DNA of 42,869 nucleotides from Acinetobacter phage vB_AbaA_LLY: sequence record OQ503491.1; one strand, 5' to 3'. Every line of letters begins with the position of its first letter. The stretch's first letter is position 1. The notes under the pieces are model-generated. The model was not told the DNA's origin, searched no databases, and saw only the letters and a program-made list of their open reading frames with translations. The translations under genes and the position numbers were made by a program. Positions 3 through 34,780 of this stretch are shown one piece after another.

Positions 3-2600
3 ATGGAAGTAGCAGTAGACACAAGCAAGGCGAACCGATTAGCCGCACTGTCCGGATTCGTACAGGACTTCGGCGTAGGTTTTGAGGAAGGAATCAAAGA
101 GAACGCGGCGGCCGCCACAGTGCGCGGCGCGATGGATGCTCAGGGTGCGGTGGACGCGATGGCCTCCAAGGACGAGGCTGTACAGAAGCAGAACATCTTC
201 GTACGTGAAGCCTACCAGGACGGCTACGTATCCGCTGCTGCATACGACTCGCTAGCCAAGTGGCGCACAGACAGTATCGCCCGGGCTAAGAAAGCTGCCG
301 AGGCGGGGCTGACTGACGAGGAGTTCCAGCAGCAAGAGCAAGAGCACGTCCAGTCTATGTCGGACAAGCTCGGTATGTATCTACCGGATATGTCCAAGCA
401 GTCCGCTACTACCATACTGCAGCAGCTCCGTGCTACCAGCATGGCGAACTATACAGCCTTCCAGAAAGGTCGAGCTGCGTTTGCCCTGGCACAGGCTGAC
501 CGTGCCCTAGACCGCGGCCTTAGCTCGTCCAGTGATGAGTTCTATCAGCGCCTACAAGCAGGGCAGGGCGCCGCTGCGCAGATGTCTATCAAGACCGGTT
601 TAGACAGTATTCTGGCCGCCGAGCACCTGGACAAGAGCAAGAAGCTGGACCGGGCCAAGCGGTATCTGGTCAGTGTAGCGCAGCAGACCCAGGATCCGCT
701 GGTAATCAACCAGCTGCAGGAAATGGCCACTAAGGAACTTGGCGTCAACTCTGTAGACGTCAACGCGGCGCTGTATCAGGAGTTCAAGCGCGCCGGTGCT
801 CAGATTGAGACCCAAGCCCGTTTCGAAATCTCCGATGAAATCCAGTCTCTTGAGGGGCAGACCCCAGAGCAGCAGGAACAGACAATGGCGCGTATTCGTA
901 GTCGCGTCATTGAGCTGTCGGCATCGGACGTGCTCAGCGCCGGGACTAGCATGGAGTTCTGGAACAAGGCCCAGACCATTCGTGAGAAGGCAGCAGACGC
1001 CCAGGCATTGCGCACGGCGATTACTGGGAATATGCCAAGCTCCACTCTGGCTGGGATGTACAAAGGCGACCTGGGTAAGGCTCGCAATGAGCTGCTCAAG
1101 AGCTTTCCGGACACCCCGGAAGGGAACCTGCAGCTGCTGGCATACGGAAGCAATAGCAAGGATGCGTGGGCCGTCAACGAGGCGCACAAGCGTATGTCTT
1201 CGGACATGGCACGTACACTGACTACCCTGGACCAACTCGGTGAGGACGGCGAGGTTTCCCGTGAGAACGTCAGCAGCATCAACCTGTGGGCCCAGGCTTA
1301 TAGCACCAGTACGGACTTAGGTAAGATGGCACTGCTGTCTGAGGTCCCGTCTGAGTGGCAGGGGGTGGTGCAGAAAGCTATTGCACAAAACCCAAGTAAC
1401 GCCAGCAACACTATCTTGGATGACCTGCGCCGCCAGGCGCGTAACAAGGCCAGTGGTCGCTACAGCAACATCCAAAGTAACCCCACGGACAAGATGGTGG
1501 ACCCTAGCGGTACCAGCAACTGGTTCAGTTTCTTTGGCGATGCCGACGCGCAGCGCCAGGAAGCGCGCGCTGCTATGGAGGAGGAGTACCGTTATACGTA
1601 CAGCCGCAACCCAGAAGCTCTGGTGGGTAAAGATGCCGAGGACATCAACACGATGCTCAAGGGTAACATCCAAGCCCGTAAGCTAGAGCTGGAAATTGCT
1701 GGTACGCCGAGGCACGTGTATCTGCCTGCCGGAACCTCTCTGCAGTCTATCATGGGCGACTACAAGGGCGACCAGGAGCAGTTCAAGGCTACGCTGCAAC
1801 GGCAGATTCAAAACCAAGTACAGGCTATCACTGACCCCAGCAACATGGAACGTGTAGTGGTGCAGGCCGCCACAGCAGGCAACGCAGGTCAGAACATGAC
1901 CGTAACCGTGTTCGACAAGAAGGGCACATTCCAGACTATGTCTGTGAACCTTCGCGACGTTCAGGCTACTGCACAAGCTGCGTATGATTCAGCACTGGCT
2001 GGAGAGATGAAGATTGGTAGCGAGCAAGTGGGTGTACGTCCCGCTACCTTCTACGACCACGATAACGGACGTGCTGTCAGCGTACAGGTCAACGGCCGTA
2101 ACGCGGTGGGGCTAGAGCCGTCGCTGTTTAGTGATATCCTCGCCACCACTATGAAGTTCGAAGGGTTCCGAGAAGGCAAGGGCAAGGGTAGCATAGGCTT
2201 TGGTCTGCACGTTAACTCTGGCATGCCAGTTCCTCAGAAAGTAACCATTGACGACGGTATCAGTATCCTCAAATCCTCTATGGAGAAGCAGTACGTTCCG
2301 AACGCGCAGAAGCAACTCAAGGGGCAGGGTTTGAATGCCTCCGACGAGGCGTTAAAGGTTATGGTGGACCTGAACTATCATGGCGGTAACGGTAGCTCTG
2401 GCCCAGTAGCAGAGGCGGTGGCTCAGGTACGCAAGGCTGCTAAGTCCCCGGTGGGGGCGTATCAGTACCCTGTATCTGAGGCCCAGGGTAGGGCTTGGCA
2501 AGCGCTGCGGAATACCCCGGCGTACAAGCAGGCCCAACCTGAGCGCAAGAAGTACCTGGAACAAAACCTACGTGATTGGCTCTTTGAGGCAACACACTAA
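3..2600 (+). CDS. Internal virion (ejection) protein with C-terminal lysozyme-like domain; 5' end truncated by window start
   Basis: Long ORF in the structural block. The C-terminal segment TMKFEGFREGKGKGSIGFGLHVN matches the T4-lysozyme/GH24 pattern EG..(Y/F)..(D/G)..G..(T/S)IG(F/I)G(H), as in phiKMV gp36-type proteins. Position is upstream of the large gp16-like protein. Confidence 0.65.
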   Translation: MEVAVDTSKANRLAALSGFVQDFGVGFEEGIKENAAAATVRGAMDAQGAVDAMASKDEAVQKQNIFVREAYQDGYVSAAAYDSLAKWRTDSIARAKKAAEAGLTDEEFQQQEQEHVQSMSDKLGMYLPDMSKQSATTILQQLRATSMANYTAFQKGRAAFALAQADRALDRGLSSSSDEFYQRLQAGQGAAAQMSIKTGLDSILAAEHLDKSKKLDRAKRYLVSVAQQTQDPLVINQLQEMATKELGVNSVDVNAALYQEFKRAGAQIETQARFEISDEIQSLEGQTPEQQEQTMARIRSRVIELSASDVLSAGTSMEFWNKAQTIREKAADAQALRTAITGNMPSSTLAGMYKGDLGKARNELLKSFPDTPEGNLQLLAYGSNSKDAWAVNEAHKRMSSDMARTLTTLDQLGEDGEVSRENVSSINLWAQAYSTSTDLGKMALLSEVPSEWQGVVQKAIAQNPSNASNTILDDLRRQARNKASGRYSNIQSNPTDKMVDPSGTSNWFSFFGDADAQRQEARAAMEEEYRYTYSRNPEALVGKDAEDINTMLKGNIQARKLELEIAGTPRHVYLPAGTSLQSIMGDYKGDQEQFKATLQRQIQNQVQAITDPSNMERVVVQAATAGNAGQNMTVTVFDKKGTFQTMSVNLRDVQATAQAAYDSALAGEMKIGSEQVGVRPATFYDHDNGRAVSVQVNGRNAVGLEPSLFSDILATTMKFEGFREGKGKGSIGFGLHVNSGMPVPQKVTIDDGISILKSSMEKQYVPNAQKQLKGQGLNASDEALKVMVDLNYHGGNGSSGPVAEAVAQVRKAAKSPVGAYQYPVSEAQGRAWQALRNTPAYKQAQPERKKYLEQNLRDWLFEATH

Positions 2601-7285: not shown

Positions 7286-7588
7286 ATGGCAGGGGCAGCT
7301 AAACGTAGTCGCCTCTCGGAGCTGCACCACATGTTCACCGAGGCCTTGATTGAAGAAATCAAGCAGTCCAAGGAAGATGAGGTGCCGCTCCCCGCCGCAG
7401 ATAAATCAGTTATCGCCAAGTTCTTGAAGGACAATGACATCACCGCGGACGCAGATTCCGAGGAGATGCAGGACCTTCGTGATGAATTCGATGACGAACT
7501 AGCGGCGCGCAGAGAGGCGCGTAAGCAAGAGATTCTAAATAAAGTTGGTGGTTCAGACTCTGAGGACTTACTAGAAGGAATTGTCTAA
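7286..7588 (+). CDS. Terminase small subunit (DNA maturase A) candidate, 100 aa, acidic
   Basis: Small acidic ORF immediately upstream of, and translationally coupled (ATGA overlap) to, the large terminase. Position equivalent to T7 gene 18. Confidence 0.5.
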   Translation: MAGAAKRSRLSELHHMFTEALIEEIKQSKEDEVPLPAADKSVIAKFLKDNDITADADSEEMQDLRDEFDDELAARREARKQEILNKVGGSDSEDLLEGIV

Positions 7589-8157
7589 TGATATCGGCGA
7601 AGACTGCGCGAAGACTGCGCATGCTCAACCAGAAACTTACTGGTTATAGTGTGAATCCGCGCAGTATCCCCAAAGAGGAGCGCGAGGATATCGCGATGAT
7701 GATGGCCGCCGCTCTAAGCGACTTCCGGGAATTTGCGTACATCGGTATGCGGTTCCTGGGCTTTACGCTCACGGACATGCAGGCCGACATTGCAGAGTAC
7801 ATGCAGAAGGGCCCTAGGAAGCGCATGGTGGCTGCGCAGCGTGGTGAGGCTAAGTCTACACTAGCTGCACTGTACGCCGTCTGGAGGCTCATACAGGACC
7901 AATCCTGTCGTATCCTGATTGTGTCCGGCGCGGAGAAGCAGGCGTCAGACGTAGCTAACTTAATCATTCGTATGCTGGAAACCTGGCCGCTGCTGTGCTA
8001 CTTGAAGGCCGACCCTACTCGTGGGGACCGTACTTCATTCGAAGGCTATGATGTCAACTGCGATCTGAAACCGCTGGACAAGTCCGCCAGCGTAGCCTGT
8101 GTAGGTATCACTGCATCCCTGCAGGGGAAGCGCGCGGACCTGCTGATTCCTGACGAT
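7588..8157 (+). CDS. Terminase large subunit, exon 1 (ends ...GKRADLLIPDD)
   Basis: Aligns with T7 gp19 ...TDMQADIAE(Y/F)M... through GKRADIIIADD. The ORF then hits TAA, the first nucleotides of the intron. Confidence 0.85.
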
Positions 8158-8501
8158 TAACATCATAGTCGTCATTAAACCCCTTGAATTCGGTGGAAAC
8201 CCAGACCGGGCAATACCGAGCGAAGCCTCAACTGAGGAACGTGTAACGACTATTCCGTAAGGAAGTACCAGCAAGTGCTGGGAAGCGGGGGGCCTTGACT
8301 TACTGGTCAAGTGAAGATATAGTCTACTCTGCATGGGAACATGCAGTATCTACTACAAGATTTGAGCGGTAGCCGTACTTACTCCAAGAGTACGTGCCGA
8401 TTTATCCCAGCCTCTGAGAACTTATCAGACGCAGGCAACCGTCGCTGGGGTAACAAGTAGTAGGTAGGGGGAGAGGTAGCGTCCTCCCTTTAATATACAG
8501 G
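8158..8501 (+). mobile_element. Group I self-splicing intron (ORF-less, 344 nt) in the terminase large subunit gene
   Basis: Joining 8157|8502 restores the T7 gp19-like sequence PDD|IETTKNGLTQTQREQLL (T7: ADD|[17 protein letters not shown]). Exon ends in U. P1: exon 5'-UGACGAU / intron IGS 5'-GUCGUCA with U·G at the splice site. Intron ends in G. Conserved R element GUAACGACUAUUCC and S element GAAGAUAUAGUCU are present, with a P8-like hairpin CTTGAC-ttactg-GTCAAG. Confidence 0.8.
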
Positions 8502-9788
8502 ATTGAGACCACCAAGAACGGTTTAACGCAAACCCAGCGTGAGCAGCTGCTGATGATTTCGAAAGACTTCGCAGCTATCTGTACGCACGGGGATACGCTG
8601 TACCTGGGTACACCACAGACCAAGGACAGTATCTATAAAACCCTGCCGGGACGTGGCTTCGAGGTCCGCGTGTGGCCGGGGCGCATTCCGTCTGTTGAAA
8701 TGGAAGAGCGATATGGAAGTACACTTGCTCCTTATATACTGGAGCTCATTGGGCGCGGCTATAAACGCACCGGCTTCGGCGTCGACGGGACGCTAGGCGA
8801 GAGCACGGACACCGGGCGCTACGACGAGGATGCACTGATTGAGAAGGAGCTGGACTTCGGTCCGGAAGGCTTCCAGCTGCAGTACATGCTCGACACCACC
8901 CTGTCAGACCAAATGCGTACGCGCATCAAGCTCTCGGATATGCTAGTTTACTCCGGTAGTCAGGATTCCTCCCCTGAGACGTTCTCCTACATTGCGGACC
9001 GCAGGTACCTGTACCAGCACGAGCATGAGGGGATTATGGGTCAGCAGATGTACTTCCCGGCATTCTACGGGGATATGCACCTGCCGTATCAGCATAAGGT
9101 GCTGGTGGTAGATCCGGCCGGCTGTCGCGGCGATGAAGTTTCATACGCTGCTGGTGGTGCTGCGAACTCGTACATTCACCTATTCTCAGTAGGTGGCTTC
9201 CAAGGAGGTATCAGCGAAGAGAACATTGATAAACTGATTGATCTGTGCGTAGAGTTAGACATCCCGGACATGGTGGTGGAGAGCAACATGGGGCACGGCA
9301 CCGTGTCTATGCTTATTCTGAACCGGTTACGGGAGCGGCGTCTCGTCGGTATTGGTGTACGGGACCTGAACAACTCCACGCAGAAAGAGCGTCGTATCAT
9401 CGACACAATCAGCCCAGTTACTCGTCGTCACCGCCTGGTGGTGCATGAGCGTGCTATTCACGACGATATCAGCACCTGTATGGCGTACTCACGCGATAGG
9501 CGTTGGCTGTACTCTGCGTTCGCGCAGTTGTCCGGTATCACGTACGACCGCGGTAGCCTGGCGAAGGATGACCGAGCAGATGCAATCGCCATGATGGTGG
9601 CTACGCTGAACGGGCATCTGGTGGAAGATGAGAAAGTAGTAGCTGAGCGTGAGTCTGAGAAGATGGCTCGGGCCTTCATTGAGAATCCCCTGGATTGGGC
9701 ACAGAATAAAGTGTCTAAGGGGCTCCGGGGTGTAGCTGCACGGTTACAGAACCGGGGCAGAGGTAAACAACATAGAGGAAGAAGATAA
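8502..9788 (+). CDS. Terminase large subunit, exon 2
   Basis: ...REQLLMISKDFAAICTHGDTLYLGTPQT aligns with T7 gp19 [17 protein letters not shown]...VIYLGTPQT. The C-terminal nuclease region is conserved. Confidence 0.85.
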   Translation: METTKNGLTQTQREQLLMISKDFAAICTHGDTLYLGTPQTKDSIYKTLPGRGFEVRVWPGRIPSVEMEERYGSTLAPYILELIGRGYKRTGFGVDGTLGESTDTGRYDEDALIEKELDFGPEGFQLQYMLDTTLSDQMRTRIKLSDMLVYSGSQDSSPETFSYIADRRYLYQHEHEGIMGQQMYFPAFYGDMHLPYQHKVLVVDPAGCRGDEVSYAAGGAANSYIHLFSVGGFQGGISEENIDKLIDLCVELDIPDMVVESNMGHGTVSMLILNRLRERRLVGIGVRDLNNSTQKERRIIDTISPVTRRHRLVVHERAIHDDISTCMAYSRDRRWLYSAFAQLSGITYDRGSLAKDDRADAIAMMVATLNGHLVEDEKVVAERESEKMARAFIENPLDWAQNKVSKGLRGVAARLQNRGRGKQHRGRR

Positions 9789-22012: not shown

Positions 22013-22168
22013 ATGCTTAAACCGTCAGACATAAACTATCTCGATGATGAGGTAATCAAGGCGTACGCTGCGTCTGCAGGTACTTTCCGTAAACGGTTTG
22101 TGCTGGATAGTAGCCAGCTGATTGTGCATCTAGCTATCAATAAAGCTCGGAGGGCTAAATGGAAATGA
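22013..22168 (+). CDS. Small hypothetical protein (51 aa); not in the supplied ORF track
   Basis: AGGAGG RBS 5 nt upstream of the ATG. Overlaps the start of the HNH gene. Confidence 0.35.
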   Translation: MLKPSDINYLDDEVIKAYAASAGTFRKRFVLDSSQLIVHLAINKARRAKWK

Positions 22169-22587
22169 GTGAGTGTGTAGACCACGGTAAACGTAGACAC
22201 GCAGCAGGTTATGCCTACGTAAGACACAGCGGTAAGCGTGTACGACTACACCGTCTAATTTATTGCCAAAAAGCAGGTGTTGCTTTAGAAGATATAGACG
22301 GTTTAGTTGTACGACATACTTGCGATAATGCATGGTGCATCAACCCAGAACACCTTATCATAGGCACGCAGGCGGACAATATACGGGACGCTGTAGAGCG
22401 CGGACGCAATGCTAAAGGTTCCAGTAACGGGCAATCCAAACTAACGCCAGAAGCGGTGATGTATTGCAGGGAGCACTACGTAGCCTACCATCCAGAATTC
22501 GGCGGGGCTGCGCTGGCTAGAAGGTTCGGCGTAGGCTGTTCGGTTGTGCACGACGCTATAAAAGGAAAGACTTGGAGGGGTGTGTGA
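22159..22587 (+). CDS. Free-standing HNH homing endonuclease
   Basis: HNH core VVRHTCDNAWCINPEHLIIGTQADN (H...N...H). Located immediately upstream of, and overlapping, DNA polymerase exon 1. Confidence 0.75.
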   Translation: MEMSECVDHGKRRHAAGYAYVRHSGKRVRLHRLIYCQKAGVALEDIDGLVVRHTCDNAWCINPEHLIIGTQADNIRDAVERGRNAKGSSNGQSKLTPEAVMYCREHYVAYHPEFGGAALARRFGVGCSVVHDAIKGKTWRGV

Positions 22588-24014
22588 GCAGTATTCTATT
22601 TACAGATTATGAAACGGAGAACCACCAGTACTACGGGGGCGTTGCATCTCCATATTGCCCGGATAACTATATAGTCGAGAGCGGTTGGCGAATAGACCGC
22701 ACAAATCCGGATGGCTCTGTTGACGTAGGTACAGTGCAGAGCGTACGTTACGCTAACAAGGAGGAGTTTAAAGCGGCGCCGGTTAGCGAGTGGTTCCCCA
22801 TTCAAGAGGACACTTGGTTAATCGTAGCCCACAACCTGGCCTATGAGTGCTCTTGGTGGTTGACCTATGCACGCAAAGAGTTCGAGGCATTTTTAAAGCG
22901 CGGGGGTCGTGTATTCTGCACAATGCACGGGCACTACATTGCGTCAGACTTTCAGGACATGTACCCATCGCTCGACGAGACCGCACCTAAATACGGAGGC
23001 ACCCACAAGGTTGACGGGGTTAAGTTACTGTGGGAACAAGGTGTACGCACATCTGAAATCGACCCCATACTTTTACATGAATATCTTGTAGGGCCGAGCG
23101 GCGACATTGTGAATACCGCGGTCTGTTTCTACGGGGAATGCGCTGTATTCACAGAGCGCAACCAAATGCAGTATGTGTGGGAACGTCAAGATGCGCTACT
23201 AGCCTGGAGCTATTGCGAATTTTTTGGCCTGTTCGTGAACATGCCGATTGCTCGCAAGAACCAAGAGGAGCAGGAGCAGCGCATCCGCGAGATTAAGCAG
23301 GAGCTGCAGCAGTACATCCCGAAGGACTTGCCGGATACGCTGGATTTCAACTTCGGCTCGGACTTTCATATGTCCGCACTGGTGTACGGTGGGCCTATCA
23401 AGTACCGCAAGAAGGTTCCATACGACCCTCCGCAGTACGTTAAGGCAGACTTCTACAAGTACGAGGACGCAGAGGGTGCGCACACCTATATACCTGTACA
23501 CGACACGCACATGCAAGCACTGCAAACGGAAGGCGGGTGCTGGCGTGTAGTGACATATCGTGCGGGTAAGAACAAGGGGCTCCCTAAAGTATTCCGCCTC
23601 GATACCGAGGAAGAGAAACTTAAATGGGAAGACGACCTTTACTTCTGCCCGGGCCTAGTGAACATCCAGGAGCTTCCGGAAGTTATCCGGGAGAAGTACG
23701 CAGAGCGCGGTGAGTTCCGACAGGCGCGCACCCTGCATGACGGTACGCCAGTATACAGCACCAGCACCGACGCGATGGAGGCGCTGGCTCGCCAAGGGTT
23801 CGAGTTCTGTAAGTTGGTGAACGAACTGGCGGCGCTGGAGAAGGATACCGGCACTTACTATTTGCGAGAAGTACTGGACGCAGAAGGTAAGGTAAAAGAG
23901 CGGAAGGGGATGCTGCAGTATGTAATCCCGGAGCGTCCCGATGGTTCCGGCATCATTCACCACCGGCTGAATACATGCGCCACCGTAACCGGACGCCTGT
24001 CGGGTTCAAACCCT
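22572..24014 (+). CDS. DNA polymerase (family A), exon 1 (3'-5' exo and N-terminal polymerase region; ends ...TGRLSGSNP)
   Basis: Exo I motif LFTDYETEN. Ends in the conserved TGRLS(S)xxP motif, then an in-frame TAA that belongs to the intron. Confidence 0.85.
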
Positions 24015-24713
24015 TAACGGTTAGGGGTTTTAAAACCATGTGAACTCAGGGGAAGCCCAGACCGGGTAATCCTGAACCAATCCAGTCCCATCTACCTTCG
24101 GAGGTACATATGGACAGCATTAAGAATCTGATTGAAAACACCACCTTAACCTTAGAAGAGATTCAAGCGCAGGTGGGTTGTGGTATGCGCACGGTACGTA
24201 ATGTGTGGGCTAGTTACCCCGCCGCCTTCAGAAAGGCGCGTAAAGCGGGGTGCTATCGCAGGTCCAAGTTGGGGGATAAAAACCCTATGTTTGGCAAGCA
24301 CAGCACAGAGCACCATAATTACATCGGGGTTGTATCTGATGGGAAGGGCTACCTGATGGCACTGAAGCCAGACTGGTACACCGGGCGCAAGGGTAGTAAG
24401 CACGTGTTCGTGCACCAACTAGTTGTGTGCAAGGCATTAGGCATAACTGCTATGCCAGCTGGTTGGGTGGTACATCACTGCGATGAAAACCCTCACAACA
24501 ATGACTTCAGCAACTTAGTGTTGATGCTTAATGCAGACCATCGACGTCTGCATTCTGCACTGGCAGGTGCAACGACTATCTCGAAAGAGAGTACACTCAA
24601 GTGGGTGGAAGCGCATGGCACGCCGTGGCGTGAAGATATAGTCTGAACTGCATAGGAATATGCAGCAGCCCCGAGGGGCGGGCGCAGATTAACGAACTGC
24701 GTTGAACACAATG
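24015..24713 (+). mobile_element. Group I intron (699 nt) in the DNA polymerase gene, encoding an HNH homing endonuclease
   Basis: Splicing 24014|24714 restores RLSGSNP|NLQNLP (compare Pol I STGRLSSTDPNLQNIP). Exon ends in U. P1: exon AAACCCU pairs with intron GGGGUUU (U·G wobble). Intron ends in G. R element GCAACGACUAUCUCG and S element GUGAAGAUAUAGUCU are followed by the hairpin CTGCATAGGAATATGCAG. The 5' region is homologous to the other two introns. Confidence 0.85.
24110..24646 (+). CDS. Intron-encoded HNH homing endonuclease
   Basis: HNH motif GWVVHHCDENPHNNDFSNLVLMLNADHRRLH. The ORF's 3' end overlaps the ribozyme core (R, P8, S). Confidence 0.8.
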   Translation: MDSIKNLIENTTLTLEEIQAQVGCGMRTVRNVWASYPAAFRKARKAGCYRRSKLGDKNPMFGKHSTEHHNYIGVVSDGKGYLMALKPDWYTGRKGSKHVFVHQLVVCKALGITAMPAGWVVHHCDENPHNNDFSNLVLMLNADHRRLHSALAGATTISKESTLKWVEAHGTPWREDIV

Positions 24714-25709
24714 AACCTCCAGAACCTCCCACGAGATGGGACCAGTAAAGTAAAACAGATGTTCACCTCCCGCTTCGGGGAGAGTGGGCGCATCACTGAG
24801 GTGGACTACTCGGCACTGGAAGTGGTTATGTCCTGTGTGCACACCGGAGACAGGAAGCTGCTGAGCCTGCTGCAGAATGGTACAGATATGCACTGCTACC
24901 GCTTAGCGTTCAAGGAGGGCAAGACCTACGAAGAGATGTATGACCTCTGCCACAACGCCGATGGGCCGGACTATAAGTACTGGAAGCAGCAGCGTACGGA
25001 CATTAAGCCCCCGAGCTTTGCTGCACAGTACGGGGCTACGGCTAAAGGGATTGCGTTTGCTACGGGCTGTACAGTGGAGTATGCGCAGTCGTTCCTGGAT
25101 AACGAGGCGAAGCTGTTTCCAGACACCATCGGCTTCCGCGCTGTTGTCAAGGAAGAAGTAGAGCGTACCGGTGCAGAGGGGCGCATGTACCGAGAGCAAG
25201 CTGACGACGGCAGCTACAGAATCTACCGCATCGGGACGTGGACCAGCCCTGCTGGTGCTCGCTACAGCTTCCGTCAGAAAGAGCAGTGGAAGGAAGTTGT
25301 GCCTGGGCAGCGTAAGCAGAAGGTAATGGACTACAAGGAAACAGAGATGGCAAATTTCTGGTGCCAAGGAGAAGCCTTCTTCTTAATGTGTGTGGCAGCC
25401 GGTATGGTTCTGCGTGCATTTTTGGCGCGGGACTGGTTCGACAATCAGGTGTGCCTGATTACGAACGTGCACGATGCGCTCTATACCGATTCTGCTAATG
25501 AGGAGATTGCTGTGTTAGCGGGAAACCTGGTTAAGCAATGCATGGAAGAGGCACCTAAGCGCATACACCAGCTCTGGCCTAACTACGGGATTATAGGGGA
25601 GGTACCCTTCCCCGCAGAATGTGAGCACGGGCCAAGTATGTACGCTAAGACAACTACACCAACAGTAGAGGAATATTATGCCGAAAGAAATGGGCCCGGA
25701 CCTGCGTGA
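24714..25709 (+). CDS. DNA polymerase (family A), exon 2 (palm/fingers: motifs A, B, C)
   Basis: Motif A VDYSALEVV, motif B RTDIKPPSFAAQYGATAKG, motif C ITNVHDALYTD. Confidence 0.85.
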   Translation, partial: NLQNLPRDGTSKVKQMFTSRFGESGRITEVDYSALEVVMSCVHTGDRKLLSLLQNGTDMHCYRLAFKEGKTYEEMYDLCHNADGPDYKYWKQQRTDIKPPSFAAQYGATAKGIAFATGCTVEYAQSFLDNEAKLFPDTIGFRAVVKEEVERTGAEGRMYREQADDGSYRIYRIGTWTSPAGARYSFRQKEQWKEVVPGQRKQKVMDYKETEMANFWCQGEAFFLMCVAAGMVLRAFLARDWFDNQVCLITNVHDALYTDSANEEIAVLAGNLVKQCMEEAPKRIHQLWPNYGIIGEVPFPAECEHGPSMYAKTTTPTVEEYYAERNGPGPA

Positions 25710-26169
25710 GGTTTTCACTTACGACGCAGAGACTGGGGAGTTACGGTGGAATGTATCGAGGGGAAAGGCAGCTGCAGGGTCGCTAGCCAACTCTAGAACC
25801 TATGACGGGAGATACTACAAGGCCACTTATAAGGGTACTGTCCTACTAGCTCACAGATTGGCGTGGTACTTACACACTGGAGAACAACCTCCCGACGTCA
25901 TAGACCATGCGGACGGTGACGGGCTCAATAACTGCTGGGACAATTTACGCGCCGCAAGTTCCAGCAGTAACCAGTGCAACATAAGCGCCACAGTCAAATC
26001 CACTTCCGGTATTAAAGGGGTGTTCCCCATCCGTGGTGGAAAGCTCTGGCGAGCGGAAGTATGTATTAACGGCGCGCGTTACCAGAAACATAGCGCCGAC
26101 CCACTAAAGCTAGAGGCCTGGGTTAAAGCTAAGAGAGAATCGCTGCACGGCAAGTTTGCTCGACACTGA
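25678..26169 (+). CDS. Free-standing HNH endonuclease with AP2-type DNA-binding domain
   Basis: HNH VIDHADGDGLNNCWDNLRAAS. AP2-like segment GIKGVFPIRGGKLWRAEVCINGARY. Overlaps the 3' end of the polymerase gene. Confidence 0.7.
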   Translation: MPKEMGPDLREVFTYDAETGELRWNVSRGKAAAGSLANSRTYDGRYYKATYKGTVLLAHRLAWYLHTGEQPPDVIDHADGDGLNNCWDNLRAASSSSNQCNISATVKSTSGIKGVFPIRGGKLWRAEVCINGARYQKHSADPLKLEAWVKAKRESLHGKFARH

Positions 26170-28945: not shown

Positions 28946-29104
28946 ATGCTGTACGTATCTCGCGCAATTTTTATAGCGTTAATGTTTCCCCTGCTCCCAC
29001 TGGCGGGCCTGGTATACCTTGGCGATAAGCTGAGCAAGGCAAAGTGGGCAGAACGTTGGGCTGAGTGGGCTGATAAGAAGGCCCGTGACATTACGGGGGT
29101 CTGA
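28946..29104 (+). CDS. Small membrane protein (52 aa); not in the supplied ORF track
   Basis: GGAGG RBS. Hydrophobic segment IFIALMFPLLPLAGLVYL. TGATG overlap with the exonuclease start. Confidence 0.35.
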   Translation: MLYVSRAIFIALMFPLLPLAGLVYLGDKLSKAKWAERWAEWADKKARDITGV

Positions 29105-30072
29105 TGATTATCAACGGGGTTGACTTATCCCAGCTTGAGGCGCAGTTAGCTCCGCAGAACTCTGGGAAGATTCTGCTGTATGATGCGGACTTTTGCGTGT
29201 ACAAAGCCGCCGCTACGGTGAAACGTCTGGACACCGCGATACGTCGCTTCTATCAGCTGGTGCTGGAGGACATGTTCCTGGTCGGCTGCTCAGAAGCAGT
29301 GGCGTATCTGACGCCAGCAGGATGTGCTAAGTGCCTGCGCTGGCACCTGCCAACGGCTAAGCCATATCAGGGACAGCGTGCTAACCGCCAGGAGCTGCCA
29401 CTTAAAGCGCCGTTGAAGCGGCACCTGATTGAGAATCCAGACCAGTATTCTGAGCAGGGTATACAGATAGTCAGCAGCGACTACTTCGAGGCCGATGACC
29501 TGTTCATAATGGATTCGTACAGCTTCGGGGACCGGGGAATCCTTATGTCCCAGGACAAGGACTCCTGGCTCAGCCCTATGGCTCGGTTCGATATCCCGAC
29601 CGGAACCGTGTGGCCTGCCTTGGATAACCCCTTCGGCTGGATTAAGTGGGATGACACTCAGGCTATGCCGGTACGGGCGCATGGTACTAAGTTCTTCTGG
29701 TGGCAGATGCTAGCAGGGGATGACGCAGATAACGTCAAAGGCATCACATTGCTTGATGGGAAGCTCTGTGGGAAGCGGACGGCCTTTGATGCTATCTACC
29801 CTATTACCTCAGAGCAGGACGCCGCAGAATTCGTTGTAGCGGCCTATGCTCGAAACAACCAAGATGTACTCGCAGAGGCAGAATGCCTATTCCTGCGGCG
29901 CTCCCCGTCAGATTCTGCATACCAGTATCTGATGTCACTGTTGACTACTCCCAGTCTACGTGACTGGGTGCAGTCGCTGCACGAGTACCATAAACAGCAC
30001 ATACAGTGGATACAGGAGCACCCAGACAATGGCGAAGATGTCTGCGAAGGAAATGAGCCTGCGGGCGATTGA
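29104..30072 (+). CDS. 5'-3' exonuclease (T7 gene 6 / FEN family)
   Basis: N-terminal ILLYDADFCVYKA and central DDLFIMDSYSFGDRGILMSQDKD acidic clusters typical of FEN/T7 gp6. Confidence 0.7.
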   Translation: MIINGVDLSQLEAQLAPQNSGKILLYDADFCVYKAAATVKRLDTAIRRFYQLVLEDMFLVGCSEAVAYLTPAGCAKCLRWHLPTAKPYQGQRANRQELPLKAPLKRHLIENPDQYSEQGIQIVSSDYFEADDLFIMDSYSFGDRGILMSQDKDSWLSPMARFDIPTGTVWPALDNPFGWIKWDDTQAMPVRAHGTKFFWWQMLAGDDADNVKGITLLDGKLCGKRTAFDAIYPITSEQDAAEFVVAAYARNNQDVLAEAECLFLRRSPSDSAYQYLMSLLTTPSLRDWVQSLHEYHKQHIQWIQEHPDNGEDVCEGNEPAGD

Positions 30073-30229
30073 GTTATACTACGAGGGGAAACATGATGAA
30101 CTTGAAACTATTCTGGATGCGCTGCGTGAACGAGCACCCAAAACACATCGAAGAACGGTTGAGCATTTGGATTCTATCATTCACGACAATGCTATGCTGG
30201 ATGTAATTGGGGAGATTCAGGTATGGTAG
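30029..30229 (+). CDS. Hypothetical small protein (66 aa; ORF track start 29960)
   Basis: ATG 30029 with a CAGGAGC RBS. Overlaps the exonuclease 3' end. Confidence 0.35.
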   Translation: MAKMSAKEMSLRAIELYYEGKHDELETILDALRERAPKTHRRTVEHLDSIIHDNAMLDVIGEIQVW

Positions 30230-31077
30230 ATTATGATTTCCCTAAGCGGATCATCTTACAGGGGGAGAGGGTAGGCCGTAGGCCGGACCTGCCAGAAGAG
30301 TTCCGTTTTGACGGCGAGGTGTTTAGGGGCATCCCATCTTCGGAGATGAATTTAGCGTGCTCTGCAACGGGGCGCTTCGTCGGCAAGACCGGTAAGATTC
30401 TTACCCCTAGAAAACAGAGTTCAGGGTACCTGTGGTATTCGTGGGTAAACGAATCTAGGGTATGTGCTAACGTCTATGCACACAGAGGTGTGGCTGAGGT
30501 GTGGTTAGCCCCAAGAGCCGGGGCGTATTACGTAAATCACAAGGATGGAAACAAGCATAACAATGCTGCAGATAACTTGGAATGGTGTACTTCTGCAGAA
30601 AACACACAGCACGCCATAGCTTCCGGACTGGTATGGAATTTGCCCAGGAAGGGGGAGGCTGGATTCCGTAGGATGACCCGCGCCCAGAACCGACAGGTAC
30701 AGACAAAGCTATGGAGGGAGCAGGGTGGGGTGTGCCCTATATGTGGGCTTCCCATAGACTTGCAGGCCAGTAGCAAGAATAATGGCCCTGTCACGGACCA
30801 TATACACGATGATACAGGGGCGGTTAGAGCGGTTCTACACAGAGGGTGCAACGGCTTTCTCGGTAAAGCGGAGAACACTACCCGCTGGGCGGGCGTATCT
30901 CCTAATGATAACGATCGGATAGCGGATTTGCTGATAAGCGCTGGGCATTATCTGATGTCCGAACCAACTCACATCCAGTATTATACAGTGCGTACGCCGG
31001 AAGAATTGGCGCAGGCACAGAAGCTCAAGGCCCGCAAGGCCCGGGCACGACGCAAAGCACGGGAGACTATTAAATGA
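30223..31077 (+). CDS. HNH endonuclease domain fused to an endonuclease VII-type (Holliday-junction-resolving) domain
   Basis: N-terminal region: YVNHKDGNKHNNAADNLEWCTSAENTQHA (HNH of the I-HmuI-like family). C-terminal region: GGVCPICGLPIDL...VTDHIHDDTGAVRAVLHRGCNGFLGKAEN matches T4 endo VII (GKCLICQ...HLDHDHE...GKVRGLLCNLCN). An internal Met at ~30670 could initiate a separate resolvase. Confidence 0.65.
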   Translation: MVDYDFPKRIILQGERVGRRPDLPEEFRFDGEVFRGIPSSEMNLACSATGRFVGKTGKILTPRKQSSGYLWYSWVNESRVCANVYAHRGVAEVWLAPRAGAYYVNHKDGNKHNNAADNLEWCTSAENTQHAIASGLVWNLPRKGEAGFRRMTRAQNRQVQTKLWREQGGVCPICGLPIDLQASSKNNGPVTDHIHDDTGAVRAVLHRGCNGFLGKAENTTRWAGVSPNDNDRIADLLISAGHYLMSEPTHIQYYTVRTPEELAQAQKLKARKARARRKARETIK

Positions 31078-31292
31078 GTGACACAGTAAATTCCCCTCAG
31101 CACTATGCAGGCGGTGGTGTAGAGTGCGTTGACGCAATAAAAGCTAGTATGTCATCGGAAGCATTCAAGGGGTACCTAAAGGGGAACGTCCAAAAATACT
31201 TGTGGCGTTACGAGAAAAAGGTTGCCCCATTGGAGGATTTACATAAAGCACAAGTTTACTTAGGGTGGTTAATTGAAGCGAATAAATCCTAA
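31074..31292 (+). CDS. DUF3310-family phage protein
   Basis: Signature SPQHY...GVEC...GNVQKYLWRY...DLHKAQVYLGWL. ATGA overlap with the upstream gene. Confidence 0.6.
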   Translation: MSDTVNSPQHYAGGGVECVDAIKASMSSEAFKGYLKGNVQKYLWRYEKKVAPLEDLHKAQVYLGWLIEANKS

Positions 31293-31429
31293 AACGGGAC
31301 TGTCGTTTAAGCGCGGAGATTAGGGAGTGTGATGTGCTCTGTGCCAACTGTCACAGAATTAAAACTTATGAGGAGCAGGAGTGGAGAGCCCTAGCGCATG
31401 GTGCCACAGGATGTGGCAGAAAGCAGTAG
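31286..31429 (+). pseudogene. Remnant C-terminal fragment of an HNH endonuclease (no start codon)
   Basis: Open frame translates to ...LSAEIRECDVLCANCHRIKTYEEQEW..., the characteristic C-terminal CxxCH..K tail of HNH nucleases. No ATG/GTG with an RBS, and a stop lies immediately upstream. Confidence 0.45.
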
Positions 31430-31527
31430 AACGGGGCGACGAAAGCTCCGCTAAAGACTACCTGGAGATGTACAATCTCTGGATTAGCAGGAACCTATAA
31501 GGGCATAACCGGGGAGATTAAGCGTCT

Positions 31528-33319
31528 ATGATTCACGCACTGAATACGGTTGTAGTATCAGAGGAAGCACTGGTGAAACGCCAGCTGGAGCTTGAAGAGG
31601 CCTATAAGATTCGCGGAATCGAGCGGGCACGTAAGCTGATTACGGACGCATTGCAGAACGGTGGGATTATGAACCTGCCGATGACGCAGCGTATGCTCAC
31701 CTCGGCATATGAGGTGGCTGCTGCCGCTATCGATGAGATGCGAAATGTCAAAGCCCCGGGCATTGGTGGGAAGTACCGCCGGTTCTTGCGCTTAGTCCCC
31801 TTGGATGTCCTGACCACCCTGAGCCTGTGCACAATGTTTGAGGCATTCAGCGTCGCCCCCGGCGAGTCCGCTAGTCGCCGCCAGACTGCACAGGCGGTAA
31901 TGTCCGCACTGGGCCGGAACGTACAATCGGAGCTGCTGGCACTGCAGTTACGCAACGTAGCCCCGGCGTACATGGACCGTGTATACGAGTACCTCACAGA
32001 GCGTCGTACGAAGTCCCCTACGCACATCCTGCGTACGCTCCGTGCCAGTGCCGAGAACGTGCACTATGGGCACGAGCCTTGGACCAATGCCCAGAACATC
32101 TCCGTAGGGCGTCTGCTGTGTGCCGCAGTGTTTGAGACGGGCCTGTTCCAGTGGAAGAACTGTAGCGGTAATCTGAGCATGCTATACCCCGCAGACAACG
32201 TTATGGAAGCATTCCAGCAGTTAGTGGAATCTGCCGACACTGTGACGATGAAGCCGCCTATGCTGGTACCGCCGGTGCGGCACACTACTCTGTGGGATGG
32301 TGGGTACCTTACCCCTATCGACAATCGCGGTACCTATCATAATTCTCACATTGACCGCGCGCGTCTCCGCGAAGTAGCGGAAGCATTTAAGTCCGCGGAC
32401 GGAATCAAGAAGGCGCTTAATAAGGCACAGGAAACCCCATACCGCATTAATAAGCGCATACTGGAACTGGTGCAAGAAGCACGGGCCCTGGGTGTTGGGA
32501 TAGGCATGCCTCGCTCAGTACCAGAGCCGAAACCGGAGTGGTATCTGGACGGGGTTCCGAAAGAGAACTACACCGAGGAAGAGCTTGACCGATTCGGTGA
32601 GTGGAAGACGCGCATGTCTCTATGGTATAGCGCTGACCGTAAGCGTGTATCGCAACTACGCAGCCTTCTGACTACGTTGGAAATGGCGGAGGAATTCAAA
32701 GATGAGAAAGCCTTGTACTTCCCGACTTGTGTGGACTGGCGTTACCGCCTGTACTTCAAGTCCTCGCTGCACCCCCAAGGTTCGGATTTGCAGAAAGCCC
32801 TTCTTGAGTTTGGCAGAGGAAAACCTCTGGGTGAGCGGGGACTATTCTGGCTCAAGGTACACGTCGCCACATGCTTTGGTTATGACAAAACCTTATTCGA
32901 AGACCGCGCAGCTTGGGTTGATGCGAACTTTGCAGCGCTCGGAGAGCTTGTGGTTTCACCGTTTGATTGCCCTGCTTTTGCCGAGGCAGACAGTCCCTGG
33001 TGTTTTCTGGCCGCCGCTATCGACCTGGTTAATGCTGTGCGTTCTGGATGCCCAGAAGAGTATATTAGCCGAATCCCGGTGGCTATGGACGCTACAAACT
33101 CAGGTGGACAACATCTCTCAGCGCTTCTGAGAGACCCTGTGGGCGGTCGTCTGACGAACCTGTACTGGGAGGGTAACGATAAGAAAGCGGACCTGTACAT
33201 GGACGTGAAGCGCCGTACAGACGAGAAGGTGATACTGGACCTGGACAAGGAGGATTTCGTTATCCAGAGCACGTACTGGAGAGAGAACGAAATCACCCGC
33301 AGCATGACCAAAAGACCGT
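31528..33319 (+). CDS. Single-subunit phage RNA polymerase, exon 1 (ends ...ITRSMTKRP + first nt of a Ser codon)
   Basis: T7-RNAP-like throughout. The ORF runs to the conserved TKR(S/P)(V/S)MT motif, then a TAA within the intron. Confidence 0.8.
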
Positions 33320-34103
33320 TAATGCACATCGGCGGTCTATAAACTAGGTGAATTCAGGGGACGGCTAGAACAGCCAATCCTGAGCGAAGCTACTACTGTG
33401 CGGCCTTATAGGAGGTCGTATGGAAACTAGGCAGTGCACAAAATGTAACGAAGTTAAACCTCTATCATCCTTCTCTAAAGGCACGCGAAGCGCAAACACG
33501 TTCCGCGGTGCCAGGGAGGTGGGCAAAGTAATTTATAAACCTACGTGTAAAATGTGCGATGCCGCCTACGCCAAGGCGTGGCGGGCAGCAAACCCAGATT
33601 ATCAGAAGAGGCAGAGAGCTAAACGAGCAAGGGTCGAGGTCTTGTCTATAGACCCTATGCTTAAATCCTTCGTGTCTTGTCGGGTGGCAGATGCAAAGGC
33701 TAGGGCAGCAGCTCGTAATTTGCCTTATGACTTGGATAGGGAATACATGTTGGCTATATGGGACGGGGTGTGCGCACTGTCCGGGGTGCCGATTAATTGC
33801 CACAAAGGCAGTATGTACATCGGCTCCATTGATAGAGTTAACCCCGAACTTGGTTATGTTAAGGGGAACGTGCAGTGGGTATCTTGGCAAGTTAATCGGG
33901 CTAAGGGAGAATACTCGCTGGAAGATTTAATTACAATGTGCCGCGCAGTAGTAGAACGTGCAGAGACTATCCGAAAGGAGTAGGGCCAAGCGGCCCGAAG
34001 CGCCTAGCCCCTTTAGTGGGTGATGATATAGTCCGACCTGTATGGGGACATACAGCAGCCGTAAGGCGGGGGATACCTAGCGAGTATCCCCGAACACTTT
34101 TTG
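33320..34103 (+). mobile_element. Group I intron (784 nt) in the phage RNA polymerase gene, encoding a Zn-finger/HNH-like endonuclease
   Basis: Splice 33319|34104 gives ...ITRSMTKRP-S-MTYFYSATV (T7 RNAP: VTRSVTKRSVMTLAYGSKE; mitochondrial RNAPs: VMTNVYGVT). Exon ends in U. P1: exon AGACCGU pairs with intron GCGGUCU (U·G). Intron ends in G. R element GCAGAGACUAUCCG, P8-like GGGCCAAGCGGCCC, S element GAUGAUAUAGUCCG, and the hairpin CTGTATGGGGACATACAG. The 5' region GAATTCAGGGG...CAATCCTGAGCGAAGC is homologous to the other two introns. Confidence 0.75.
33420..33983 (+). CDS. Intron-encoded endonuclease (N-terminal CxxC...CxxC zinc ribbon; C-terminal HNH/His-Me-finger-like motif)
   Basis: CTKCNEV...CKMCD zinc ribbon, then GSIDRVNPELGYVKGNVQWVSWQVNRAKG, which resembles an HNH/endo VII-type beta-beta-alpha motif with a trailing Asn/Lys. 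Good RBS (AGGAGG) before the ATG. Confidence 0.55.
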   Translation: METRQCTKCNEVKPLSSFSKGTRSANTFRGAREVGKVIYKPTCKMCDAAYAKAWRAANPDYQKRQRAKRARVEVLSIDPMLKSFVSCRVADAKARAAARNLPYDLDREYMLAIWDGVCALSGVPINCHKGSMYIGSIDRVNPELGYVKGNVQWVSWQVNRAKGEYSLEDLITMCRAVVERAETIRKE

Positions 34104-34780
34104 CGATGACTTACTTCTACAGCGCTACGGTGCGTAGCTGTAGTGATTATATCTTTGCAGGTGCCTGTGAAGAGGGGTACGAAGGAACGGATACACATAG
34201 TCTATGGAACCTATCCTGCTACCTGGCACCGCGTATGCGTACCGCTATTGAGGAGGCAAACCCAGCTGCGGCAGCAGTTATGGGGTACTTGCAGAACCTC
34301 GCTAGACGTGTACCAGCAAGCCAGCACCTGCAGTGGACTACGCCGCTAGGCGGGCTTGTAATGAACCGCTACACGCAGCGTGAAGAAGTGCGGGTACGCA
34401 TTGACTGTATGAACCTCACCATCATGCGCGTGCATAATCGGGATTTCAAGACCTGCAACAAGCGCAAGGCAGCCTCGGGGATTGCCCCGAACTTTGTGCA
34501 CAGCCTGGATAGTACGCACTTGATGATGGTTCTATGTGCCGCCGAGGGTCTGGACATTGTGCCGATTCACGACTCCCTAGCTACACATGCAGCCGATGTT
34601 GATACTATGCACCGGCACATCCGCGAGCAGTTTGTGCGTCTCTACGAAGAGCACGACCTTCTTGGGGATATCACTCGCGCGGCGGCAGCAGCTGGGGCGG
34701 ACTTGACGGATTTGGATATGCCTGAGGTAGGTACCCTGGACATCCGGCAAGTGCTAGAATCCCCTTTCTTCTTTTCATAA
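34104..34780 (+). CDS. Single-subunit phage RNA polymerase, exon 2 (C-terminal palm/thumb: GIAPNFVHSLDSTHL ... ILESPFFFS)
   Basis: Conserved T7 RNAP motif C region QESGIAPNFVHSQDGSHL and the C-terminal foot DILESDFAFA are matched. Confidence 0.8.

Follow-up and report, generated by a model that had tools for sequence, protein, structure and literature searches.

A homing-type HNH endonuclease domain fused in frame to a core endonuclease VII in the podophage vB_AbaA_LLY

Phages normally carry their free-standing homing endonucleases as separate genes, easily lost and prone to decay through frameshifts. In the stretch of DNA considered here (42,869 nucleotides (nt) of Acinetobacter phage vB_AbaA_LLY, sequence record OQ503491.1; hereafter, the window), a homing nuclease is instead welded in frame to a core DNA-processing enzyme, an endonuclease VII (endoVII), with purifying selection on both halves, while unfused intermediates that differ by one base persist in related phages. 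The nearest conceptual relatives of this arrangement are the inteins and the mobE insertion in nrdA of Aeromonas phage Aeh1. Inteins likewise comprise a homing-type nuclease translated in frame with a host protein, but they occupy an internal site and contain a Hint splicing domain, whereas the fused protein has no Hint and carries its nuclease at the N-terminus, splicing being neither possible nor needed. An intein was thus rejected, considering the lack of a Hint/intein Pfam match and the location of the nuclease at the extreme N-terminus. In Aeh1, the mobE insertion fragments the host gene into two polypeptides, which are reassembled through tails (PMC3045599). Both Aeh1 and the window present a phage homing endonuclease caught up in the coding sequence of an important gene that is kept working, but in the window the host endoVII is intact and the endonuclease is added as an extra domain. 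We consider it probable that the product is a bifunctional homing nuclease and resolvase, in which an HNH nuclease of the I-HmuI type is fused via a short flexible linker to the core endoVII, the whole having been recombined into this genome as a cassette.

Concerning each half separately, the solved structure that best matches the HNH half is I-HmuI (Bacillus phage SPO1, intron-encoded, Pfam HNH_3, His-Me finger group 2), with which it shares the beta-sheet plus beta-beta-alpha-metal fold and the motif (V/D)HKDGNKxNN...NL.W.T...N. I-HmuI has its own C-terminal helical/helix-turn-helix (HTH) DNA-binding domains, in whose place the fused protein has an entire endonuclease VII, and the I-HmuI gene sits in an intron, whereas the fused HNH is in frame with a phage core gene. 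As for T4 endonuclease VII (gp49), its residues C23, C26, D40, H41, H43, C61 and N62 all have equivalents in the fused protein, which differs from the T4 enzyme in having His for C58 and Leu for E65. The stand-alone, ~140-amino acid (aa) endoVII of phiKMV-like phages (KP34 gp34, ZH4 gp28) occupies the same slot after the 5'-3' exonuclease. A basic C-terminal tail is common to the fused endoVII half and the Drulisvirus endoVII, and the fused form adds a 148-aa N-terminal nuclease domain to the stand-alone plan. The free-standing HNH genes of Autographiviridae (Pectobacterium phage Peat1, Xanthomonas phage GF2 and Variovorax phage VAC_51; metagenomic L008, L011 and L012) are of the same lineage, with the same tail and slot, but there endoVII is a separate overlapping open reading frame (ORF), whereas in the window there is one frame. 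Taken singly, neither half is out of the ordinary for its family (HNH_3 and Endonuclease_7), and HNH genes beside endoVII are common in Autographiviridae. What is new, as far as the literature searches reached, is the in-frame HNH_3-Endonuclease_7 protein as a conserved and selected architecture, since no description of such a fusion was found in them. It is not a new kind of system but a selfish nuclease entrenched in a core gene and experimentally accessible.

The two nuclease domains

The fused gene is one uninterrupted ORF of 284 aa, with an ATG start and a TGA stop (Table 1), that holds VNHKDGNKHNNAADNLEWCTSAENTQHA (aa 104-131), CPICG, DHIHDD and HRGCNGFLGKAEN, in that order. The HNH_3 domain extends over aa ~25-135 and the endoVII domain over aa ~150-284. 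Both were recognised by Pfam above the curated cut-offs (24.8 bits for HNH_3, 23.6 bits for Endonuclease_7): HNH_3 (PF13392) at aa 100-128 with 32.2 bits, and Endonuclease_7 (PF02945) at aa 156-222 with 36.2 bits. In the PHROG comparison, families 59/959 'HNH endonuclease' covered aa 30-148 (expectation values, E, of 2e-23 and 2e-22) and family 423 'endonuclease VII' covered aa 149-283 (E 7e-31). The two-domain match is far above chance. The AlphaFold2 model of the protein, with a mean predicted local distance difference test (pLDDT) of 83, displays two confident domains and a low-confidence linker between them.

The HNH module is formed by an N-terminal beta-sheet region and the HNH_3 beta-beta-alpha-metal core, with pLDDT >90 across aa 21-120. 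It matches I-HmuI (1u3e) by sequence (E 1.2e-4) and also by fold (Foldseek E 4.6e-8), and its residues H106, N113, N114, N118 and N127 are unchanged in 7/7 fused members. The HNH helix is followed by a 15-aa linker and then by endoVII. No NUMOD, HTH or AP2 DNA-binding domain was found in the Pfam scan of the fused protein; the related HNH of BUCT822 carries an HTH-like tail, unlike the fused one.

Concerning the endoVII half, a profile of its family matches T4 endonuclease VII (1e7d/1en7) over T4 residues 9-106 (E 1.2e-13). The family profile was needed, as a phmmer search of the PDB with the whole fused protein missed T4 endoVII. With the monomer model, Foldseek gave a weak match to T4 endoVII (E ~0.2), which is expected when a domain-swapped dimer is modelled as a monomer. 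In the alignment, C171/C174 of the window correspond to T4 C23/C26 and H206/C209 to T4 C58/C61 (zinc site), D192/H193/H195 to T4 D40/H41/H43 and N210 to T4 N62 (catalytic), while L213 occupies the position of T4 E65. The zinc site, CxxC...(C/H)xxC, is invariant or nearly so across the family in its four residues C171, C174, H206 and C209, and D192, H193, H195 and N210 are invariant alignment columns. A helical region and a basic C-terminal helix follow the catalytic core. This half shares only ~55% protein identity with the endoVII of the genomic relatives closest to the window, and 65% with P0149, the stand-alone form most similar to it. By analogy with the T4 enzyme, it is presumed to be a branch/Holliday-junction resolvase.

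The exonuclease gene at 29104..30072 (PHROG 107) is followed by a small ORF and then by the fused gene, the endoVII half of which thus occupies the expected core-gene slot of the phiKMV-like replication module, after the 5'-3' exonuclease. The gene order from the exonuclease to the endoVII slot is the same in ZH4, RCIP0099, BUCT822, L004, L005, L006, L010 and L012, and no second core-type endoVII was found in the whole window. A Shine-Dalgarno-like GGGGAG (30209-30214) lies 8 nt before the ATG at 30223. The TAG stop of the upstream small ORF (30227-30229) overlaps the start of the fused gene (ATGGTAG), and the TGA of the latter overlaps the ATG of the next gene (ATGA, 31074-31077); therefore, the fused gene is embedded in a translationally coupled operon. 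A scan of 29900-31600 for sigma-70 promoters and terminators gave no signal exceeding the shuffled expectation, and an Rfam scan gave no RNA family at the fused locus.

These results agree with much of an earlier note on this DNA, which had read from the sequence one frame with an I-HmuI-like HNH domain of homing type in front of a T4 endoVII-like domain with a basic tail, had considered a resolvase to be expected at this genome position, and had proposed a domain search as a check. The Pfam, PHROG, profile and fold matches, the gene order and the continuity of the frame in many independent assemblies bear this out in full.

Table 1. Location of the features of the fused gene in the window.
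Feature	Positions	Strand	Basis or remark
Translation start region	30209..30229	+	Read from sequence; common to HNH-less relatives
Whole fused ORF	30223..31077	+	284 aa + TGA; Pfam, PHROG
HNH homing-endonuclease module, aa 1-148	30223..30666	+	Pfam, PHROG, I-HmuI sequence and fold matches
HNH_3 Pfam match, aa 100-128	30520-30606	+	
H106	30538-30540	+	
N127	30601-30603	+	
Linker/junction, aa 136-150, LVWNLPRKGEAGFRR	30628..30672	+	Motif kept in fused and unfused members
M151, candidate internal start	30673..30675	+	Ile/Met of RR(I/M)TR motif
EndoVII domain, aa 149-284	30667..31074	+	PF02945, PHROG 423, profile alignment to T4 endoVII
Conserved 3' island of endoVII gene, ...TPEELAQAQKLKARKARARRKARETIK and stop	30979..31077	+	Identity to relatives resumes here

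Spread, integrity and selection of the fused family

The cluster search, which covered 5.8 billion proteins, yielded six 90%-identity clusters carrying both domains, with decreasing identity to the window: P0001 (99%, 284 aa), P0002 (83%, 284 aa), P0003 (59%, 328 aa), P0004 (48%, 271 aa), P0005 (45%, 269 aa) and P0006 (45%, 271 aa). An exhaustive HMMER scan covered 1.84 billion 50% representatives, only two of which span both domains; therefore, the fused family is real but rare. The August 2025 copy of INPHARED, apparently without the record of the window or its near-duplicates, contained no fused homologue of >60% identity; the exact protein is deposited in NCBI as WPJ51746.1 (Klebsiella phage RCIP0039, 'hypothetical protein') and WEV89173.1 (vB_AbaA_LLY, 'endonuclease'). 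P0005 and P0006 occupy the endoVII slot after the exonuclease in phiKMV-like contigs whose downstream genes (PNKP, ligase) are unlike those of the window, so that phiKMV-like gene arrangements of at least two kinds house the fusion architecture.

The frame is intact wherever it was inspected. All the distinct sequences of three clusters were of full length (19/19 for P0001, all of 284 aa, 3/3 for P0002 and 10/10 for P0005), coming from many independent samples, and the lengths were the same in independent assemblies from Logan, ENA, MGnify, JGI and NCBI isolates. The fused ORF is intact in L009, L004, L007, L005 and L006. In the JGI contig L009, only the last 81 aa were called as a gene, yet the DNA has an unbroken 284-aa frame, so the short call is the choice of the gene caller.

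Selection was estimated from Nei-Gojobori counts of the proportions of non-synonymous (pN) and synonymous (pS) differences, for each half separately. Between the window and L004, pN/pS values were 0.166/0.85 for the HNH half and 0.073/0.76 for the endoVII half, i.e. synonymous sites were saturated in both halves with pN at 0.07-0.17. Between L005 and L006, omega was 0.056 (HNH half) and 0.049 (endoVII half). With respect to the 97%-identical copy of L009, 24/26 differences in the gene were synonymous. These substitution patterns indicate that both halves are under strong purifying selection.

The locus in related phages and the ancestry of its parts

The window holds the complete genome, in circularly permuted form, of a KP34-like podophage of Klebsiella (Autographiviridae, Slopekvirinae, Drulisvirus), and Drulisvirus is also the published classification of vB_AbaA_LLY (PMC11126041). 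The flanks of the fused ORF matched 247 phage records with 80-99% identity. In ZH4 the locus is taken up by a plain endoVII of 140 aa, which starts ATGGTA-GCACGCCGT (MVARRITRGQ...): its start region is the same as that of the window through ATGGTA, and it then runs directly into endoVII. RCIP0099 and BUCT822 have each, in the same slot, a separate HNH gene that also opens with ATGGTA, after which comes an independent endoVII gene that has a start of its own; the HNH genes of these two phages are unrelated to each other. Thus, the first two codons of the endoVII slot are a hot spot that has been captured by at least three different HNH genes. The HNH of the window is without counterpart in ZH4, KP34 and NTUH-K2044-K1-1, though the flanks are 94-99% identical.

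The identity breakpoints are sharp, at 30229 on the left and at 30979/30997 on the right. The window is 94-99% identical to its relatives up to 30186-30229 and again from 30979 (RCIP0099) or 30997 (ZH4). Between the breakpoints there was no nucleotide match of the window to these relatives. Flanks of 94-99% identity that enclose a segment with no nucleotide match and an endoVII of ~55% identity indicate that the HNH and most of endoVII constitute a foreign cassette which entered by recombination. The right-hand junction of the cassette is held in a 99-nt island (30979..31077), which encodes ...PEELAQAQKLKARKARARRKARETIK and is 92-100% identical across the compared Drulisvirus, whatever the endoVII subtype before it and the gene after it (100% in L009; 92% in BUCT822, where the downstream gene differs). 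The island serves as a fixed recombination junction. Just past it there is a variable spot: the downstream 72-aa ORF (31074..31292) corresponds to no more than the C-terminal portion of PHROG 'nucleotide kinase' families (DUF3310), and its counterpart has 125-150 aa in L004, L009 and BUCT822.

Among stand-alone HNH proteins, those closest to the HNH half share 50-55% identity with it and end 4-18 residues past the tail NLPxKGxxGF. Wherever their context was available, they were located directly upstream of a separate endoVII ORF in another frame, both ORFs overlapping by 8 nt (L011), 13 nt (Peat1), 16 nt (GF2), 52 nt (VAC_51), 58 nt (L012) or 107 nt (L008). Some of these ORFs are missing from the annotation. 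Intact HNH ORFs upstream of endoVII are unannotated in Peat1 (L013 1444..1782; NC_029081, RefSeq) and in GF2 (L014 1477..1851), and the endoVII coding sequence of Peat1 is annotated too short (1962..2195, versus an ORF at 1770..2195).

The linker motif NLPxKGxxGF is the C-terminal tail of the HNH lineage, kept in fused and unfused members, and the 'RR' at the junction is where the stand-alone endoVII begins (M-x-x-RR(I/M)TR). The fused junction is invariably ...GF-R(R/K)(M/L/V)... (the dash marks the joint), i.e. the HNH tail is attached to RR(I/M)TR, three residues into the stand-alone endoVII. At the DNA level, the window has TTCCGT (GGATTCCGTAGG) where the unfused L012 has GGGTTC-GTAAG, a 1-nt indel apart; therefore, one base separates the fused and unfused states. 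Programmed frameshifting in the unfused relatives was considered and rejected, as inspection of the L012 junction revealed no slippery heptamer. As to the tail motif itself, GL(V/I)xN(L/I)PxKGxxGF (30628..30672 and homologues), it is conserved at the protein level despite predicted disorder (pLDDT <50 at aa 143-147); contact with DNA, contact with endoVII, or being a relic of an AP2-type strand are candidate roles.

Bootstrapped neighbour-joining trees were constructed for both halves. In the endoVII tree, the stand-alone P0149 joins the fused clade A (window, L004, L007) with 98% support and even nests inside it (87%), while the fused clade B (P0004, L005, L006; 100%) groups with L012 and P0075 (74%). 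This placement shows that the fused state exists on two endoVII subtypes and that clade A has seen a gain or loss of the HNH. On a shorter time scale, the HNH segments of the window and L009 differ in 4/444 positions (99.1% identity), versus 22/312 in the endoVII body (92.9%) and 71/969 in the exonuclease gene (92.7%), the differences in divergence being significant by Fisher tests (p = 6e-6 and 3e-8, respectively). From this, the common ancestor of the HNH segments would be younger than that of the neighbouring segments, which fits an element that is still moving. The variable presence among near-identical genomes, the sharp boundaries and the contrast of identity between the HNH and its flanks are together the marks by which the mobility of a homing HNH is recognised, and they indicate that this one is, or has been, mobile.

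Readings of the fused gene, and other mobile nuclease genes in the window

If the fused protein is a homing nuclease and resolvase, the following course of events can be proposed. The HNH lineage specialises in the 5' end of the endoVII genes of phiKMV-like podophages, normally as a separate overlapping gene. Two clades have lost the stop and restart, the HNH reading directly into endoVII at ...KGxxGF-R(R/K)... (dash at the joint), and the fused gene employs the ribosome-binding site and start codon of endoVII itself. It is inherited and exchanged as a cassette, which in this genome took the place of the resident endoVII by recombination between the common ATGGTA start and the 99-nt 3' island. 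Judging from I-HmuI-type enzymes and phage homing, the HNH head would nick or cut the HNH-less endoVII alleles of co-infecting relatives, and repair from the fused allele would copy the HNH and the adjoining divergent endoVII up to the 3' island (homing with co-conversion). The endoVII part, like T4 gp49, would dimerise and resolve branched DNA before packaging. The fusion would shield the selfish HNH, because a frameshift or nonsense mutation there would also destroy the only core-type endoVII.

Some points weigh against this interpretation. The nuclease activity of both heads is predicted from intact active-site motifs. The equivalent of T4 E65 is absent from the endoVII half, with Leu (L213) at this position in NGFLGKAE. 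Deep nodes of the HNH tree have bootstraps of 5-56%, so this tree is compatible with one fusion or two and therefore does not decide between them. The recent ancestry of the HNH segment was observed in one genome pair of a notoriously mosaic phage group. Moreover, the strong constraint on the amino acids of the HNH half could be explained just as well by usefulness to the phage as by selfish homing. Concerning E65, in T4 it is only a second-shell ligand that hydrogen-bonds a metal-bound water (PMC5722908). Leu is found at the same position in the stand-alone endoVIIs P0149, P0064, P0279 and that of L008, and the Leu-bearing endoVIIs (the stand-alone one of L010 and others) often have Glu four residues later. 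P0149 is the only endoVII called in the examined 6.4-kb stretch of the L010 contig. The missing E65 as the mark of a dead resolvase was rejected, as the stand-alone endoVII of L010 and others also have Leu.

The possible benefit to the phage leads to another explanation, a domesticated fusion in which the HNH serves the phage by cutting the genomes of competitors, degrading host DNA, or providing extra nicking or targeting for the resolvase. The purifying selection on the amino acids of the HNH half over a long divergence and the persistence of the fused state with two different endoVII subtypes are what it would predict, and an intron-encoded homing nuclease that aids phage competition is on record (PMC11620839). 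However, the fusion is rare (two 50% clusters), the closest relatives do well without it, the pattern of presence/absence and mosaic identity is that of a mobile element, and the stand-alone P0149 nests in clade A, so the HNH is dispensable; domestication is thus regarded as rather unlikely. Still less probable is that one ORF gives two products, free endoVII arising by initiation at M151 or by proteolysis of the linker, with the fusion irrelevant to resolvase function. The disorder predicted for the linker would suit it, and M151 is three residues into the start region of the stand-alone endoVII, is conserved in clade A and has a GGAGG upstream. However, this GGAGG, the sole Shine-Dalgarno-like motif near M151, stops 14 nt short of the ATG, farther than such motifs usually lie, the promoter scan gave nothing above chance, and M151 is merely the Met of the RRMTR motif, also internal in the stand-alone P0149. 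The M151 codon is GTG in L005 and, no longer a start codon, GTT in L006, by which a conserved internal start was rejected across the family, and internal initiation as the purpose of the arrangement is unlikely on these sequence grounds, although it may occur in clade A.

It is very improbable that the fusion is a recent accident of read-through, of no or slight harm and on its way to decay. A single-nucleotide indel would be enough to turn an overlapping HNH/endoVII pair into a fusion, but the fused form is found in members down to 45% identity, both halves combine low pN with saturation at synonymous sites, every cluster member is of full length, and the fusion did not arise in this genome, which received the cassette whole by recombination. 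As to an assembly or sequencing frameshift joining two genes, nothing was found in its favour except for the short gene call in L009, where the DNA is intact, and independent assemblies are identical in length; its probability is practically negligible. The low pN with saturated pS, the 24/26 synonymous differences in L009 and the full-length clusters therefore led to the rejection of both decay and artefact. The earlier note had offered these two options, as well as internal initiation at a Met around 30670, and none of the three was sustained. It had also proposed that a two-domain protein carried universally by related phages would mean an ancestral architecture. The universality did not stand, as the closest relatives are without the fusion, while a wider occurrence did, in the six-cluster family.

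Returning to the homing nuclease and resolvase, one could go a step further and regard the fusion to the resolvase as an adaptive strategy of the homing element, with two HNH nickase heads joined by the endoVII dimer and with convergence of the fused clades. This extension is tentative, and we consider it doubtful. If it were true, the selfish nuclease would be unlosable by frameshift or nonsense mutation, and a nickase could become a double-strand cutter or a nuclease directed to recombination intermediates. In any case, the fused and unfused forms offer a natural series for studying the entrenchment or domestication of selfish nucleases. It is amenable to testing, as the Drulisvirus isolates RCIP0039 and vB_AbaA_LLY have the fusion and K1-specific relatives are without it. 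From a practical standpoint, these phages are therapy candidates in which the locus is annotated only as 'hypothetical protein' or 'endonuclease'.

The window is heavily colonised by mobile nuclease genes, with three more HNH_3 ORFs, a group I intron and an endoVII-like ORF by which the gene of the single-subunit RNA polymerase is split. The N part of this polymerase is at 31528..33342 (604 aa, Pfam RNA_pol positions 1-164) and its C part resumes at ~34106 in the ORF 33938..34780 (RNA_pol positions 164-366). Relative to the unsplit gene of L009, there is an insertion of ~794 nt at 33312..34105, carrying a 187-aa ORF (33420..33983) of PHROG 1035 'endonuclease VII' (E 1.6e-29); Rfam found no intron at this insertion. 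The gene is split identically in L004. The DNA polymerase gene is split as well (22572..24017 / 24702..25709), by an HNH_3 ORF at 24110..24646, and is flanked by the two further HNH_3 ORFs (22159..22587 and 25678..26169). The large terminase gene is likewise in two halves, at 7588..8160 and 8553..9788, each with a match to PHROG 38/17672 'terminase large subunit', and the group I catalytic intron (8097..8346; Rfam RF00028, 68.2 bits, E 2.4e-15) is situated between them.

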